IMG/VR virus record: IMGVR_UViG_2879754190_000005
Reading direction: 5' to 3' (one strand)
Source: a virus
Lineage: Duplodnaviria > Heunggongvirae > Uroviricota > Caudoviricetes
DNA: 46,538 nucleotides
In this document: piece by piece, positions 5,648 to 19,293 of the stretch
Layout of the letters: each line of letters begins with the position of its first letter
Position numbering within the stretch: the first letter of the stretch is position 1
Translations under genes and position numbers: made by a program
The notes under the pieces: generated by a model
What the model was told of the DNA's origin: nothing
The model's input: only the letters and a program-made list of their open reading frames with translations
Databases searched by the model: none

Positions 5648-6013
5648 ATGGCACTGACGAAAAAACAACGTGCAGAACTGCGCATGAAGTTCGGTGGTCG
5701 CTGCGCTTATTGCGGCTGCGAACTTGGCGAAAAGTGGCATGCAGACCATGTAAAACCGGTCATTCGTTTTGATGGAAATATGCTTCACCAGGAACGTGAC
5801 GATATATCCAACATGGTACCAGAATGCCACCCATGCAATCTGCACAAGCATTGCAGTAGCCTGGAAGATTATCGACGAATTATCAGTGATGGTCGTCGTG
5901 AATTCCTTGCGTCCGGGAAAGGCAAAGCGCTGGTTCGTATGGGATTGGTTGAAATGAAATCTGACCCGGTTGTGTTCTGGTTTGAAATATATCAAGAAGG
6001 GGCTACGGCATGA
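5648..6013 (+). CDS. HNH endonuclease
   Basis: MALTKKQRAELRMKFGGRCAYCGCELGEKWHADHVKPV... carries the CxxC...HxDH HNH signature; start chosen at ATG 5648 after AGGAAAG rather than the longer ORF-track start at 5558. Confidence 0.7.
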   Translation: MALTKKQRAELRMKFGGRCAYCGCELGEKWHADHVKPVIRFDGNMLHQERDDISNMVPECHPCNLHKHCSSLEDYRRIISDGRREFLASGKGKALVRMGLVEMKSDPVVFWFEIYQEGATA

Positions 6014-6675
6014 CTACTATTACCAAAGAGCGACTGCAATGGCTGGCTAACATTTCTGGCCGCGATGATATTGACGATATAGACGGCGGTGAAATTCGTG
6101 AACTGGCGCTTATCGCTCTGGCATCACTGGAAGCAGAGCCTGTAGCGGAATGCATTGTTGAAGATGGGGGCATGTGTATTGATGGGTTCGGTGAGTATGT
6201 GGGTCACTCGCTGCCTGATGGAATGCATGAGCTTTATGCTGCCCCGCGAATGCGACAACCTGATGGATGGAAAGCCGTAGCTGTAGCGTGGAAGGTGACG
6301 TTTACTCAAGTTGACCAGGAATCTAATACGTTCACTGCTATATATTTTTACAAAGCGGAAGTTGAGCGTTGGGTACGACTGCATAAAGCATGTGATTTTC
6401 GGGCAGATATAACACCGCTTTACGCAGCGCCGGCAGTGCCGGTTGCAGTAAACGACGACATGGCTTACGCATTCCATCACGCACTGTCAGATTCATCGCT
6501 TGGCTCTGATGAAATCGAAGAAATTAAAACCGGTTTGCGTGCTGCCTTTGCCAACGTCACTATCCAACCAGAGCCGATAGTGCCGGATGAAATCGGGCCA
6601 AACGATAGTAATACGTTTGATTATGTTGATGGCTGGAACGCCTGCCGCGCTGCCATGCTTAAGGGAGATAAATAA
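6010..6675 (+). CDS. Hypothetical phage protein
   Basis: 221-aa ORF, start overlaps the HNH stop; acidic N-terminal region. Confidence 0.5.
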   Translation: MTTITKERLQWLANISGRDDIDDIDGGEIRELALIALASLEAEPVAECIVEDGGMCIDGFGEYVGHSLPDGMHELYAAPRMRQPDGWKAVAVAWKVTFTQVDQESNTFTAIYFYKAEVERWVRLHKACDFRADITPLYAAPAVPVAVNDDMAYAFHHALSDSSLGSDEIEEIKTGLRAAFANVTIQPEPIVPDEIGPNDSNTFDYVDGWNACRAAMLKGDK

Positions 6676-13851: not shown

Positions 13852-13878
13852 GAACCCGCTTTATGCGGGTTTTTTTGT
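13852..13878 (+). terminator. Rho-independent terminator
   Basis: AACCCGC TTTAT GCGGGTTTTTTT. Confidence 0.6.
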
Positions 13879-13926
13879 GCCTGAAAAATGGCACAGGGCG
13901 TTAAACGCGCTGGTGGTCAGATGAGT

Positions 13927-13955
13927 TTGCAGATGTGATGACATATGGTTATTAT
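13927..13955 (+). promoter_or_regulatory. Sigma70 promoter candidate for the tRNA array
   Basis: TTGCAG - 17 nt - TATTAT ending 9 nt before the first tRNA. Confidence 0.4.
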
Positions 13956-13964
13956 TCTGCCTCC

Positions 13965-14041
13965 GGCCCTTTAGCTCAGTTGGTCAGAGCGAGCGACTCA
14001 TAATCGCCAGGTCGCTGGTTCAAGTCCAGCAAGGGCCACCA
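13965..14041 (+). tRNA. tRNA with CAU anticodon (Ile2-type or Met)
   Basis: Cloverleaf with 7-bp acceptor stem GGCCCTT/AAGGGCC, anticodon loop CTCATAA, T-loop TTCAAGT, encoded CCA; resembles E. coli ileX from memory. Confidence 0.8.
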
Positions 14042-14042
14042 A

Positions 14043-14119
14043 CCACCACTAGCTCATCCGGATAGAGCATCAACCTTCTAAGTTGACGGTGCGAGGTTCG
14101 AGTCCTCGGTGGTGGGCCA
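14043..14119 (+). tRNA. tRNA-Arg (UCU anticodon)
   Basis: Acceptor CCACCAC/GTGGTGG, anticodon loop CTTCTAA, T-loop TTCGAGT, CCA end. Confidence 0.8.
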
Positions 14120-14121
14120 GC

Positions 14122-14197
<76 letters not shown>

Positions 14198-14200
14198 TAT

Positions 14201-14275
<75 letters not shown>

Positions 14276-14389
14276 TGACCTTTCTTAAAGTACTCCAACC
14301 TACTGAATCCTAAGGGATACGGCTTTAAGCCTCCTTGCAGAGTTACTTACTGTAACCCACTGTGTAACCCTCTCAGGGCATGCAGACAT

Positions 14390-15994
14390 ATGATTCAGCT
14401 ATCCAGTAGTCACAAACTTCCAGCAGTCTACTATCTCTACCAGCGTAACGGCGTCTACTACTTCCGTCTTAGGGTCAGACAATCAAACAATGATAGAATG
14501 ACCTCAATATCATTACGGACCAAGGATAGACGCACCGCTATGGCTTACTCAAGGCACATAAAGGCAGCACTCAAGGCAATACACGCAGACAGACCCAACG
14601 CTACCTATGAGGAAATGAGGGAACACCTTAAGGACATCGCTGAGTGTGAACTGTCTATGGGCCGTTCAGATCTCTTTGAGCCTGACATGAGGGATATCTA
14701 CCGGGACCAATACGGAGAACTTGGTGAGAGCCTTACCGATGCTCTGGCTAGTGAGCCGCTAAGCATTGACCAGCATCGTTACATCAATGAGGCCCTGAAG
14801 GTGCTAAAAGCCTGTATGAGGCGTATCGAAGCGGGAGACAGTCAGCCTCTGATAGATTACGTCGATCTTTTTAATGATATTGATAGGCAAGATAACCAAG
14901 CAGACTCTGTGTCCCTATCTGTTAATGCTCCAGAAGTAAAACCAGAAGTTACGCCTAGCATTACCATAGCGAGCCTCTTTGAACAATACGAAGCGGAGAA
15001 CTATCAGAACTGGAAGCCTGCAACCTTAAGGGAAAACAAGGCGTCACACGCTGCGTTAATCGAAATATTCGACCATCTGGGTCTCAATGCAGACGCTAAC
15101 AGGGCTGACATGCTTAGGGTCCGTGATGTGCTCCAGCAGTTACCTAGGAACCGTAAGCAGCGCTTCAAGGATGTCCCACTTGCTGACCTGTTGAGCCGTG
15201 AAGATAAGACAGATTGTCTGGATGTCGTTACCATCAACAACAAGTATCTTATTAAGATGGCTGCTGTCTTTAGGTGGGCTGTGCGCAATGACTTGATTAA
15301 AAAGAACATGACTGAGGGTCTGGAGCTTAAAGTCCCTCAGCGTAAAGCCTCAGGGGCCCGTAACGCCTTCTCTACGGAGCAGGTGGGGCAACTACTGGTC
15401 GCAGCTAAGGCATACTCTCAGAAGACCTCTGGTAAGCCGTATCATTATTATGTTACCGCCTTGGCTGCTATCACTGGGGCGAGACTCAATGAAATAGCCC
15501 AACTACAGGTCAAAGACGTCAGGACCACTGAGGCGGGAACCGTTTATATTCATATCAATGAAGACGATAGTAGTCTACCCGGTAAGAGCATCAAGAACGC
15601 TCATAGTGACCGCTGTGTGCCTCTGGTCGATGGGGCCTATGGTTTTATATTGGCTGACTTTATGGCGCTTGTAGAGACCCGTAGAGGCGCTGACGGTGAT
15701 GACGCTATGGTGTTCGATGGTCTGCGTCTCATGAAGAACGGTTACGGTGAGCAGGTGAGTAAATGGTTTAATCGGACGTTGTTGCCTAAAGTCCTCGTAG
15801 ACCGTAGCGGCTTAGCGTTTCACTCGTTTAGACATACAGTTGCGGCCCAGTTAAAACAACATGGGGTCGAGTTGGCGTATGCACAGGCGATCATGGGGCA
15901 TAGTTCAGGGTCTATTACGTACGACCGTTATGCTAAAGAGGTCGAGGTTGATAGGCTGGTCAATGTGATGGCTGATGTTTATAAGGAGACCTAG
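14390..15994 (+). CDS. Tyrosine recombinase / integrase (534 aa)
   Basis: C-terminal catalytic signature ...RLNEIAQL...HSFRHTVAAQL...GHSSGSITYDRY; lies 114 bp downstream of the tRNA-Gly 3' end on the same strand, the classic island-integrase arrangement. Confidence 0.85.
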   Translation: MIQLSSSHKLPAVYYLYQRNGVYYFRLRVRQSNNDRMTSISLRTKDRRTAMAYSRHIKAALKAIHADRPNATYEEMREHLKDIAECELSMGRSDLFEPDMRDIYRDQYGELGESLTDALASEPLSIDQHRYINEALKVLKACMRRIEAGDSQPLIDYVDLFNDIDRQDNQADSVSLSVNAPEVKPEVTPSITIASLFEQYEAENYQNWKPATLRENKASHAALIEIFDHLGLNADANRADMLRVRDVLQQLPRNRKQRFKDVPLADLLSREDKTDCLDVVTINNKYLIKMAAVFRWAVRNDLIKKNMTEGLELKVPQRKASGARNAFSTEQVGQLLVAAKAYSQKTSGKPYHYYVTALAAITGARLNEIAQLQVKDVRTTEAGTVYIHINEDDSSLPGKSIKNAHSDRCVPLVDGAYGFILADFMALVETRRGADGDDAMVFDGLRLMKNGYGEQVSKWFNRTLLPKVLVDRSGLAFHSFRHTVAAQLKQHGVELAYAQAIMGHSSGSITYDRYAKEVEVDRLVNVMADVYKET

Positions 15995-16082
15995 AGGAGA
16001 CCATAGTCTAGGATGACACTTACTACAGACCTGTGTGGTCATGTTTTTGACTCATAGTTTTCTCTACTTGTCAAGGGATAAT

Positions 16083-16105
16083 TAATACGACTCACTATAG
16101 GGAGA
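16083..16105 (+). promoter_or_regulatory. T7 RNA polymerase promoter match, copy 1
   Basis: TAATACGACTCACTATAGGGAGA, 23/23 to the T7 class III consensus; +1 G at 16100. Confidence 0.8.
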
Positions 16106-16203
16106 AGGGACACAAAAAGTTTTCTCTTCTAGGATGACACTTACTACAGACCTGTGCGGTCATGTTTTTGACTCATAGTTTTCTCTGCTTGTCAAGGGGT
16201 AAT

Positions 16204-16226
16204 TAATACGACTCACTATAGGGAGA
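16204..16226 (+). promoter_or_regulatory. T7 RNA polymerase promoter match, copy 2
   Basis: TAATACGACTCACTATAGGGAGA, 23/23; +1 G at 16221. Confidence 0.8.
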
Positions 16227-16322
16227 AGGGACACAAAAGTTTTCTCTTCTAGGATGACACTTACTACAGACCTGTGTGGTCATGTTTTTGACTCATGGTT
16301 TTCTCTACTTGTCAAGGATAAT

Positions 16323-16345
16323 TAATACGACTCACTATAGGGAGA
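16323..16345 (+). promoter_or_regulatory. T7 RNA polymerase promoter match, copy 3
   Basis: TAATACGACTCACTATAGGGAGA, 23/23; +1 G at 16340. Confidence 0.8.
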
Positions 16346-16538
16346 AGGGACACAAAAAGTTTTCTCTTCTAGGACAACTAACCGTAACTTATCGCATCCT
16401 TTCAGGGGCGGGATGACCAATTACAGACACCAAGCGTTCTACTTAAAGTGAATGCTTCCTGTGTGCTCTGGGTCAGTCGATAAGTGAATAGCAATAAGAC
16501 ACAATCATCTTAATTATGGTCTCTAGTCCCTACAGGGG

Positions 16539-16742
16539 CTTAACTTAAAGTTAACTTAAAGACACAATTAAAGATTAACTTATAGTATTACTTAAAGTTA
16601 ACTTAAAGACACAATTAGAGATTAACTTTAAGTATTAAATAAAAGATTTAATTAAAGACCAATTAAAGATTAACTCTAAGGGAATACCTTAAGGGGTGAT
16701 GATATTTATAATAATCAATCACCAAACCTATAGGTCTTCTCT
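16539..16742. repeat. AT-rich tract of TTAACTTAAAG-type short direct repeats
   Basis: CTTAACTTAAAGTTAACTTAAAGACACAATTAAAGATTAACTTATAG... repeated as two imperfect units of about 52 bp, then further TTAAAG variants; no ORF of 60 aa or more on either strand. Confidence 0.7.
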
Positions 16743-17989
<1,247 letters not shown>

Positions 17990-18210
17990 TCTAGGGTCTC
18001 TCTATAGGTCTTCTCTATGGTCTCTCTATAGGTCTCTCTAGGGTCTCCTCTAGGCATTACCCCCAGAAGCTAACTCTATGGCCCTCTATGGTCCTCTATG
18101 GCCCTGTACGTCATTCTTTAGGATGCCCTGTAGTTTCGTATAGCCTGATGCCTAGAGAGACCCTAGAGAGACCCTAGAGAGACCCTAGAGTGGCTCCTAG
18201 AGAGACCCTC
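17990..18210. repeat. Iteron-like arrays with inverted symmetry (TCTCTAGGG / TCTCTATAGG units and their reverse complements)
   Basis: 17990-18053 GGTCTCTCTATAGG/TCTCTAGGG units; 18075-18105 CTCTATGGCCC x3; 18151-18210 CCTAGAGAGACC x4 on the opposite strand sense; continuous with ...CCTATAGGTCTTCTCT at 16725-16742 across the IS911 insertion. Confidence 0.7.
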
Positions 18211-18369
18211 CCAGTAGCTCCGCACAGCTACATCGTCATCATCATAGTATTCAATCTCAAAGTCATTCTGTTTGCATCCTGTTGTCCTGCTGGTCTCCCT
18301 TCGCTTGGGGACTTTGAGTAGGTCAGTGGGGGTGCGACTTCAGGGTGCAAACAAAAAGGAAATCAAGCG

Positions 18370-18525
18370 ATGTCTCAACAACCACAACAACCACAACAAG
18401 AAATCAGCATCATTAACCTCGACCAGCTTGTGTCCATGACCTCAGTTGAAATTGCTGAGCTGACAGGCAAGGAGCACCGAAATGTCCTTCGTGATATTCG
18501 TAAGATGCTCGAAGAACTTAACGCG
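18370..18525 (+). pseudogene. Rha/Ant-family phage regulatory protein, N-terminal stump truncated by IS1
   Basis: ...LVSMTSVEIAELTGKEHRNVLRDIRKMLEEL matches the Rha/antirepressor N-terminal motif; the last 9 codons and stop come from the IS1 terminus. Confidence 0.55.
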
Positions 18526-19293
18526 GGTAATGCTGCCAACTTACTGATTTAGTGTATGATGGTGATTTTAAGGTGCTTGCGTGGCTTCCATTTCCATCAG
18601 ATGTCCTTCCTGCTCCGCTACTGAAGGCGTGGTGCGTAACGGCAAAAGCACTGCCGGACATCAGCGCTATCTCTGCTCTCATTGCCGTAAAACATGGCAA
18701 CTACAGTTCACTTACACCGCCTCTCAGCCCGGTACGCACCAGAAAATCATTGATATGGCCATGAATGGCGTCGGATGTCGCGCCAGTGCACGCATTATGG
18801 GCGTTGGCCTCAACACGGTTTTACGTCACTTAAAAAACTCAGGCCGCAGTCGGTAACCTCGCGCATACAACCGGGCAGTGATGTGATTGTCTGCGCTGAA
18901 ATGGACGAACATTGGGGCTACGTCGGTGCTAAATCACGTCAGCGCTGGCTGTTTTACGCGTATGACAGGATACGGAGGACGGTTGTGGCGCACGTCTTCG
19001 GTGAACGCACTCTGGCCACACTGGAGCGTCTTCTGAGCCTGCTGTCGGCCTTTGAGGTCGTGGTATGGATGACGGATGGCTGGCCGCTGTATGAATCACG
19101 CCTGAAGGGAAAGCTGCACGTTATCAGCAAGCGTTACACTCAGCGCATTGAGCGACATAATCTGAATCTGAGACAACATCTGGCAAGGCTGGTACGGAAG
19201 TCACTGTCGTTCTCAAAATCGGTGGAGCTGCATGACAAGGTCATCGGGCATTATCTGAACATAAAACACTATCAGTAAGTTGGAGTCATTACC
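18526..19293 (+). mobile_element. IS1 copy 2 (no target duplication; abuts IS600 interior)
   Basis: 768 bp, InsA 18581-18856, InsB 18775-19278; left flank is the Rha-like stump, right flank is IS600 internal sequence. Confidence 0.92.

Follow-up and report, generated by a model that had tools for sequence, protein, structure and literature searches.

The stretch of DNA analyzed here (termed the window) is the IMG/VR virus record IMGVR_UViG_2879754190_000005, a sequence of 46,538 nt. It contains a gene for a tyrosine integrase (int) adjoining a tRNA-Gly gene, and int is followed by a tandem array with one phage T7 RNA polymerase promoter in each repeat unit. A non-coding region follows and then the 5′ part of a gene for a Rha/Ant-like DNA-binding protein. 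Two insertion sequences, IS911 and IS1, are present in this region (Table 1). An earlier note, made from the letters of the sequence, had drawn attention to the promoter array. What that note had not recognized is that the array forms a module within a small mobile island; the window carries a decayed copy, disrupted by insertion sequences and truncated, of an island whose complete forms are 4.3–6.6 kb long.

Table 1. Features of the island copy and its surroundings in the window.
Feature	Position	Strand	Remarks
tRNA-Gly(UCC)	14201–14275	+	ARAGORN; last gene of a prophage-borne four-tRNA cluster (13965–14275)
attL core (tRNA-Gly 3′ end)	14253–14275	+	23 nt; 3 mismatches relative to the direct repeat of intact islands
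Island left arm	14276–14389	+	Holds the family-wide motif ACTGAATCCTAAGGGATACGGCT (~14302–14324), conserved in ~70 loci
Tyrosine integrase, 534 aa	14390–15994 (including stop)	+	Pfam Phage_integrase 2e-17 and DUF6538; PHROG integrase 2e-44
Junction motif CTCTGTGTCCCTATCTGTTA	14905–14924	+	Inside int, peptide SVSLSV; 20/20 identity to T7 149–168
Tandem array, 3.1 x 121 bp	16007–16374	+	Tandem Repeats Finder (TRF), 95% matches, score 694; one T7 promoter per unit
Promoter copy 1, T7 class III	16083–16105	+	Exact; −17 to +6, predicted +1 G at 16100
Promoter copy 2, T7 class III	16204–16226	+	Exact match
Promoter copy 3, T7 class III	16323–16345	+	Exact match
Conserved spacer, small hairpins	16375–16539	+	CGCATCCTTTCAGGGGCGGGATG at 16393–16415, CCCTACAGGGG at ~16520; conserved in clade A; no Rfam match
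AT-rich block, TTAACTTAAAG-type repeats	16540–16690	+	TRF; 79.5% AT
Inverted repeat GGTGATGATATTTATAATAATCAATCACC	16695–16723	+	Counterpart of a repeat ~100 nt downstream of phiOR in T7, T3 and K11
IS911	16743–17989	+	Splits the island, not part of it; TCT target duplication; read from sequence
Island resumes	17990–18369	+	Short repeats containing GGGTC/TGGTC, then leader; homology to the FT130 island
Leader, ~110 nt, probably structured	18255–18369	+	Upstream of the first cargo gene; conserved in both clades
Rha/Ant-like DNA-binding gene, 5′ part	18370–18525	+	First cargo gene; Pfam Phage_pRha 6e-10, PHROG anti-repressor
IS1	18526–19293		Cuts off the Rha/Ant-like gene; rest of island and attR gone

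The 23-mer TAATACGACTCACTATAGGGAGA is found three times in the window, each time on the + strand and with 0 mismatches. No further matches with up to 3 mismatches are present in the window, and 100 shuffles give an expectation of 0.00. The sequence is the T7 class III promoter consensus from −17 to +6, and a comparison with the T7 genome shows it to be identical to phi6.5, phi9, phi10, phi13, phi17 and phiOR. The three perfect promoters of the earlier note are thus exact copies of T7's own promoters, and its direct repeats of about 120 bp correspond to the 121-bp unit given by TRF. Its placement of the array just after the integrase stop codon also stands, with a distance of 15 nt by its own coordinate and 12 nt by TRF. 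When promoter copy 1 is extended, phiOR is the best match (36/42). Scans for host signals, i.e. sigma-70 promoters and terminators, gave background levels only.

The number of promoter units is polymorphic (1, 2 or 3) among otherwise near-identical islands: those of the window, E. coli FT130 (L001, positions 15337–15541), L055, L062 and L088. This indicates recent tandem duplication or loss. The three identical promoters of the window appear to have arisen through tandem duplication of the 121-bp unit, which would raise firing strength. The T7 primary origin likewise has two tandem promoters. The sequence ACTCATAGTT is present at 16050–16058 and 16171–16179, 33 nt upstream of promoters 1 and 2, and the third unit has ACTCATGGTT. 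It has a 9/9 match with the first bases of the T3 left end (TCTCATAGTT), which may be due to chance; matches with one mismatch are found on both strands.

The same 23-mer is used in cloning vectors, and contamination with a T7-promoter vector or a chimeric assembly would place it here artificially. The chance of this is virtually nil. Contig L052, from another genome, has 99.76% identity over positions 13865–16804 of the window with all three promoter units included, and contig L055 displays the same locus with a single promoter unit. IS911 is present in L052 and absent from L055. The junctions, which the earlier note had named as a possible point of refutation, are therefore supported by independent assemblies, and the locus is found in three of these in all. 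Of 5426 complete E. coli genomes, 104 carry similar DNA, in every case on the chromosome, and a plasmid match was never found. In addition, the array is inside a natural island bounded by att sites. Vector contamination or a chimera can be ruled out on these grounds, and the array is a genuine chromosomal feature, as had been proposed.

An intact relative is present in E. coli FT130. It is 4276 bp long and is flanked by a 23-bp direct repeat of the tRNA-Gly 3′ end. From int onwards its components are, in order, short tandem repeats, two T7 promoter units, the conserved spacer, an AT-rich block of the TTAACTTAAAG type, an inverted repeat, the conserved leader, a KilA-N gene, a small open reading frame for a membrane protein, and attR. 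Twenty-seven complete islands have been sized, and the direct repeats that flank islands in the relatives are 17–27 bp. An integrase together with flanking att sites, as expected of a satellite, is thus seen in the relatives; the window has attL and int, and no attR was found in it, this end having been lost by the IS1 truncation. Homology to the islands at the glyU locus begins inside the tRNA-Gly(UCC) gene of the window.

The family integrase is found in 385 of 5426 complete E. coli genomes (~7%). An integrase search yielded 17 loci in other genera, representing at least 12 genera of Enterobacterales: Klebsiella, Citrobacter, Enterobacter, Buttiauxella, Shimwellia, Kluyvera, Proteus, Pectobacterium, Lonsdalea, Rouxiella, Serratia and Edaphovirga. 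A tRNA-Gly(CCC) gene adjoins most of these 17 loci. A search with the left-arm motif added 7 IMG/VR and 44 metagenome contigs. Searches with Pfam, PHROG, NCBIfam and PADLOC show only int, RAZR (described below), Rha/KilA-N, DUF6971 and proteins of no known family. Replicase, AlpA, terminase and capsid genes were not found in the islands by these searches, and the absence of structural, lysis and packaging-enzyme genes is also in accordance with a satellite. Int and the cargo proteins have homologues in phage families (PHROG). An Rfam search of a complete island detected the tRNA only.

The island of the window, and likewise that of L004 (7852–8161), is located in the tRNA-Gly(UCC) gene of a four-tRNA cluster in a lambdoid/Stx-like prophage, unlike most relatives, whose site is the chromosomal glyU gene (tRNA-Gly CCC). 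Integration in a prophage tRNA gene suggests that the element can ride inside a prophage. In metagenome contigs L065, L080, L086 and L089 the left arm is preceded by the right end of a different element with the same att core and not by the tRNA body. Different elements thus stack in tandem at the tRNA-Gly site.

In the relatives the corresponding position, just after int or RAZR, is occupied by 1–4 same-strand T7-group promoters. Strict matches are present there in 35 of the 46 islands with enough sequence, and most others have near variants. The family form is N10-CACTATAGGGAGA, and the specificity regions differ among islands. The types are T7, K11, K1F-type, SRT7-type and others still to be assigned to a phage, and they are often mixed. 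The AATTAGGGCACACTATAGGGAGA type is exactly that of K11 phi9, phi10 and phi13; the (A/T)AACTATCACTATAGG type is the Kayfunavirus promoter family (phi10, phiOR); a promoter of this type in L011 is identical to K1F phiOR (23/23); and the AATTAACCCACACTATAGGGAGA type has 8 copies in the phage SRT7 genome. L003 is an example of mixing within a single island, with K11-like, T7, K11 and a fourth type. The exact T7 23-mer has flanks of at least 4 kinds, which defy alignment with each other.

The variety of phage-matched types, together with the exact 23-mer in unalignable flanks, argues for selected, functional promoters that are matched to local T7-like phages. If the sites are selected for use by the polymerase of an infecting phage, islands of other genera should have the promoters of different T7-group phages, and this is what is found. 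It is very probable that the promoters are functional and are used by the polymerases of infecting phages. The earlier statement that the array makes sense only in the presence of a T7-group RNA polymerase gains support from these promoters at the same position in relatives. In the T3 GenBank record (L048, 32757–32779), one promoter sequence is annotated as being of the T7 type and unused by T3 polymerase, so that promoters of foreign specificity have a natural precedent in T7-group genomes. FT130 also displays a degenerate third promoter-like site, AATCAATACGACTTACTAATAGGAGA (L001 16056–16101), upstream of its KilA-N gene. Repeats of 10 bp (AATCAATACG) come before this site; their place in the window is taken by CCTAGAGAGAC repeats.

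A Blast search of 50,697 phage records with the array plus flanking DNA as query, a check that the earlier note had proposed together with the E. coli comparison given above, yielded the promoter only. This suggests that the island DNA is not a captured phage fragment. It bears on the possibility that the island is an inert remnant of a temperate T7-like prophage or of T7-like recombination, with the promoters and the junction motif (see below) as leftovers. An integrase that adjoins phage-type promoters and a genome-end motif could be read in this way, and the window copy is clearly decaying. A remnant is nevertheless highly improbable, as it does not account for non-coding DNA that, the promoter aside, has no Blast similarity to the phage records, for the conservation, across 12 genera or more, of a compact architecture with both att sites, for several promoter specificities within single islands, or for the exact 23-mer in unrelated flanks.

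The islands may also be regarded as decoys, whose cis sites titrate phage RNA polymerase, lysozyme or terminase and lower the phage yield with no benefit from transfer. In accordance with this, the mimicry consists of cis sites only, and the promoters are of the strongest class and amplified in tandem. However, 1–4 chromosomal promoters are negligible compared with 17 per phage genome in hundreds of copies unless the island replicates, and a decoy with replication amounts to a satellite. In addition, an integrase and intact att sites have been kept from genus to genus, which indicates that mobility is under selection. A pure decoy is considered very unlikely, if slightly less so than a remnant.

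T7 origins consist of promoters followed by AT-rich DNA. The same arrangement is present in the window, where 150 bp of 79.5% AT is found 195 nt past the promoters. This block resembles the AT-rich DNA after the phiOR, phiOL and primary-origin promoters of T7-group phages. The non-coding DNA shares most 8-mers with T7 5851–6100 (the AT-rich part of the primary origin) and 251–500 (left-end repeats and phiOL), with z up to 7.4, and local alignment of the AT-rich repeats with the tract downstream of K11 phiOR gives z = 9–10. The inverted repeat of the sister island L003 is identical to that of T3 at 28/32 positions (z = 7), and that of T7 is also matched. Thus in the clade of the window the promoters, AT-rich tract and inverted repeat are, by sequence comparison, colinear with the phage phiOR region. 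The T3 record annotates an origin directly after promoter phi1.05.

The T7 gene 4 primase recognizes GGGTC, TGGTC and GTGTC. These pentamers are over-represented 5–7 times in the non-coding DNA of the islands (17 compared with 2.4 expected in the window, 32 compared with 5.6 in FT130), counts that are inflated by tandem repeats. Between int and the promoters, FT130 (L001 15106–15270) has ~12 tandem copies of a 13-bp sequence, GATGACCATAGGC, each of which includes the T7 primase site TGGTC in complementary form; a single copy is present in the window. The 10-bp repeats TCCTATGTGG, CTGTATGGCC and CTAGAGAGACC also contain primase-type pentamers.

Upstream of the first cargo gene is the leader, which is conserved although the gene behind it differs (KilA-N or Rha-like). 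Its alignment (A2) gives a predicted nested stem of 20 pairs, 3 of which have compensatory changes, and no Rfam match.

A Blast comparison of whole islands with T7 yielded one match besides the promoters, the 20/20 identity of CTCTGTGTCCCTATCTGTTA inside int. The matching T7 positions span the right boundary of the T7 terminal repeat. This sequence is kept at the terminal-repeat boundary of T7, T3, K11 and K1F, and in the K11 record the equivalent site bears the label “concatemeric junction”. It includes ATCTGTT (14917–14923) on the + strand, which is the promoter strand. ATCTGTT is the strictly sequence-specific class II signal for T7 RNA polymerase; it lies in the non-template strand and is present at the T7 junction (10.1101/2021.01.11.426313). 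A pause of the T7 polymerase-lysozyme complex at the junction recruits gp18/gp19, leading to maturation and packaging (PMC3276506, citing Zhang and Studier 2004).

The sequence TATCTGT is found at the same spot, in the same codon phase and on the promoter strand in 17 of 21 family integrases. Given the peptide SVSLSV, the chance of this codon choice is ~4e-5 by the codon usage of the family itself. The motif did not stand out in a scan of nucleotide conservation along int, as the SVSLSV repeat had been put out of register between clades by the protein aligner. The Kayfunavirus repeat boundary carries a variant, ...CTCTATCTGTAT. Islands with K1F-type promoters have ...CCCTATCTGTAT (CTATCTGTAT) and those with T7/K11-type promoters have ...CCCTATCTGTTA (CTATCTGTTA), with 0 exceptions in ~40 islands, a co-variation that is confounded with integrase clade. 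It fits what a functional link to the helper phage would predict.

The cargo of the islands includes a known defence gene. RAZR (PD-T7-4) adjoins int in many relatives (L003, L004, L005, L008 and many metagenome copies; E = 8e-99), and the phage promoters are downstream of it and directed away from it. In the island of the window RAZR is absent, i.e. there is no DUF4145/HEPN zinc-finger gene next to int. RAZR is described in PMC13017515 as an abortive-infection HEPN RNase that is activated by T7/T3 portal proteins and is proven to act against T7 and T3. Vassallo et al. state that PD-T7-4 “often overlaps an integrase gene” (PMC9519451). The first gene past the non-coding module is always one for a DNA-binding protein of the KilA-N, Rha or Ant type. 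In larger islands there are also genes for a small protein, a DUF6971 protein and a 330–400-aa protein of no known family; a 375-aa cargo protein gave no informative match. The DUF6971 protein of the 6.4-kb islands (L003 10370–10777 and homologues) belongs to the family of PDB 5EUR, an uncharacterised structural-genomics entry. It displays a faint sequence similarity to PC4/Sub1 single-stranded-DNA-binding proteins.

These genes suggest that the islands could be defence cassettes only, in which the promoters are an infection-gated switch for downstream effectors and the island moves by other means, without ever being packaged by a phage. In all islands the promoters are upstream of the conserved leader and cargo, and mixed promoter clusters would widen the range of phages sensed. 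The RAZR of the sister islands and a weak match of the KilA-N protein to PD-T4-2_B are consistent with defence. Apart from the latter match, however, the cargo downstream of the promoters fits no known defence model. A cassette of this kind also offers no explanation for a junction motif within int that co-varies with promoter type, for the colinearity of promoters, AT-rich tract and inverted repeat with the phiOR region, for the 0.8–2 kb of non-coding DNA between the promoters and the first gene, or for islands of such a size that a whole number of them makes up a T7-like genome. It is rather unlikely, and is the least improbable of the alternatives.

The reading that is favored, with modest confidence, is that the array is the helper-sensing and helper-hijacking module of an island that is parasitic on T7-group lytic phages and often serves in defence as well. 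The islands are most likely switched on only by infection with a T7-like phage, and they probably hitch a ride with it. A more specific proposal is tentative: that the islands would be the first satellites of lytic phages of the T7-like group (Autographiviridae), acting almost entirely in cis and having no genes for regulators, replicases or packaging proteins, with the polymerase promoters, origin-like DNA and junction pause signal of the helper copied and the helper range set by swapping and stacking of promoters.

The proposed cycle would proceed as follows. The host polymerase would ignore the promoters, and the module would remain silent until a T7-like phage supplies its RNA polymerase. 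This enzyme would fire rightwards from the array and open the AT-rich tract, which could then serve the phage replisome as a transcription-activated origin of the T7 type; the proposed role of the tract is based on the order of promoters and AT-rich DNA in T7 origins. The same transcription would express the downstream Rha/KilA-N-type gene, possibly an excision or interference factor. After circularisation by Int and formation of concatemers, transcription would run round into int. The polymerase may pause at the junction motif, where the polymerase-lysozyme complex would recruit terminase. Multimers of 6–9 units (~37–40 kb, about one phage genome) would then be packaged into phage heads, with ends predicted at or near the CTATCTGT motif. 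The sizes of the islands agree with this (4.28–4.45 kb x9, 4.77 x8, 5.45 x7 and 6.13–6.61 x6 give 36.8–40.1 kb; T7-like genomes are 38.2–41.2 kb), an argument that is post hoc.

Several other points weigh against a satellite. The 44 metagenome and 7 IMG/VR contigs with islands are all integrated; none is circular or has an attP junction, and a search of metagenomes with an exact 33-mer specific for attP gave 0 matches. The failure to find excised or encapsidated forms favors a defence cassette. An excisionase was not recognizable in the islands, and excision must come first, because in the integrated form the promoters are directed away from int and from the junction motif. T7 shuts off host transcription. 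T7 maturation normally requires both the terminal repeat and the left end; homology to the terminal repeat is not present upstream of the junction motif in the window, so that it does not reproduce a right boundary, and a search for a mimic of the phage left end (TCTCAYAGT) gives chance-level matches only. The motif is in a conserved peptide, so a constraint at the protein level may contribute, and the clade confounding lessens the force of its co-variation. The primase-site counts are not independent, since the sites are in tandem repeats. In clade B islands, a comparison of the DNA downstream of the promoters with the phiOR regions of K1F, T7, T3 and K11 gave no signal of colinearity. Finally, the copy in the window, without attR and disrupted by insertion sequences, cannot complete the proposed cycle.

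The closest comparison for a satellite of virulent phages is with PICMI of the Vibrionaceae (PMC10803314), which is ~6 kb, bears an integrase, has a virulent helper and defence cargo, and has no capsid-remodelling genes. PICMI is packaged as a concatemer of the helper genome length (8 x 6.1 kb; PMC10803314). The islands described here would fit 6–9 units per T7-like genome; packaging is demonstrated for PICMI, whereas here it is inferred. PICMI members have int, their own AlpA and a primase/replicase and are next to fis. The present islands have no recognizable AlpA or primase/replicase, are located in tRNA-Gly and do not belong to PICMI; they carry promoters for the RNA polymerase of the helper and the junction motif instead.

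The P4-like elements and PICI of E. coli are also integrative, tRNA-associated and helper-dependent, with defence genes. Their helpers, however, are temperate (P2-like or lambdoid) and are sensed via trans-acting anti-repressors or Ogr/Delta, and they encode replication and capsid-redirection functions, none of which were found here.

The islands resemble the T7 origins and phiOR/junction region in several respects. The class III promoter is exact, the bases downstream of it are like those of phiOR, and an AT-rich tract, an inverted repeat and a 20-nt junction with ATCTGTT follow, all on one strand and in the phage order. In contrast to T7, the islands have no terminal repeat or left-end sequence, and apart from these motifs their DNA displays no extended similarity to that of phages. 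The junction motif is 2.4–4.6 kb from the promoters, and this only after circularisation, compared with ~0.7 kb in T7.

The sister islands appear to be the natural home of RAZR/PD-T7-4, where it follows or overlaps int (PMC9519451 and PMC13017515); the window differs in having no RAZR. Keyword searches of the displayed text of these two papers showed no island promoters, junction motif or island concept. Full-text literature searches, with subscription-only papers outside their coverage, gave no prior description of the islands or of the promoter array, in agreement with the earlier note, which knew of none. Within phage satellites and phage-inducible islands, the helper group (T7-like phages) and the mainly cis mechanism are rated as new. 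T7 is a textbook lytic phage, and we know of no satellite or natural chromosomal use of its promoters that has been described.

If the satellite reading is correct, many enteric bacteria, including ~7% of the E. coli with complete genomes, listen specifically for T7-group RNA polymerases, by a new and purely cis-acting route of phage sensing and hijacking. RAZR/PD-T7-4 would have a natural genomic context, and gene transfer via strictly lytic podophages would be possible, including therapy phages used against E. coli and Klebsiella. The islands would also constitute a natural catalogue of orthogonal phage promoters and a natural minimal substrate for the coupling of transcription, junction pausing and T7 DNA packaging. 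A practical aspect is that expression systems based on T7 RNA polymerase will elicit a response in wild strains with such arrays.

The IS1 truncation of the Rha-like gene is common to the window and L055. Beyond IS1 there are IS3-family fragments and remnants of prophage tail-fibre genes.

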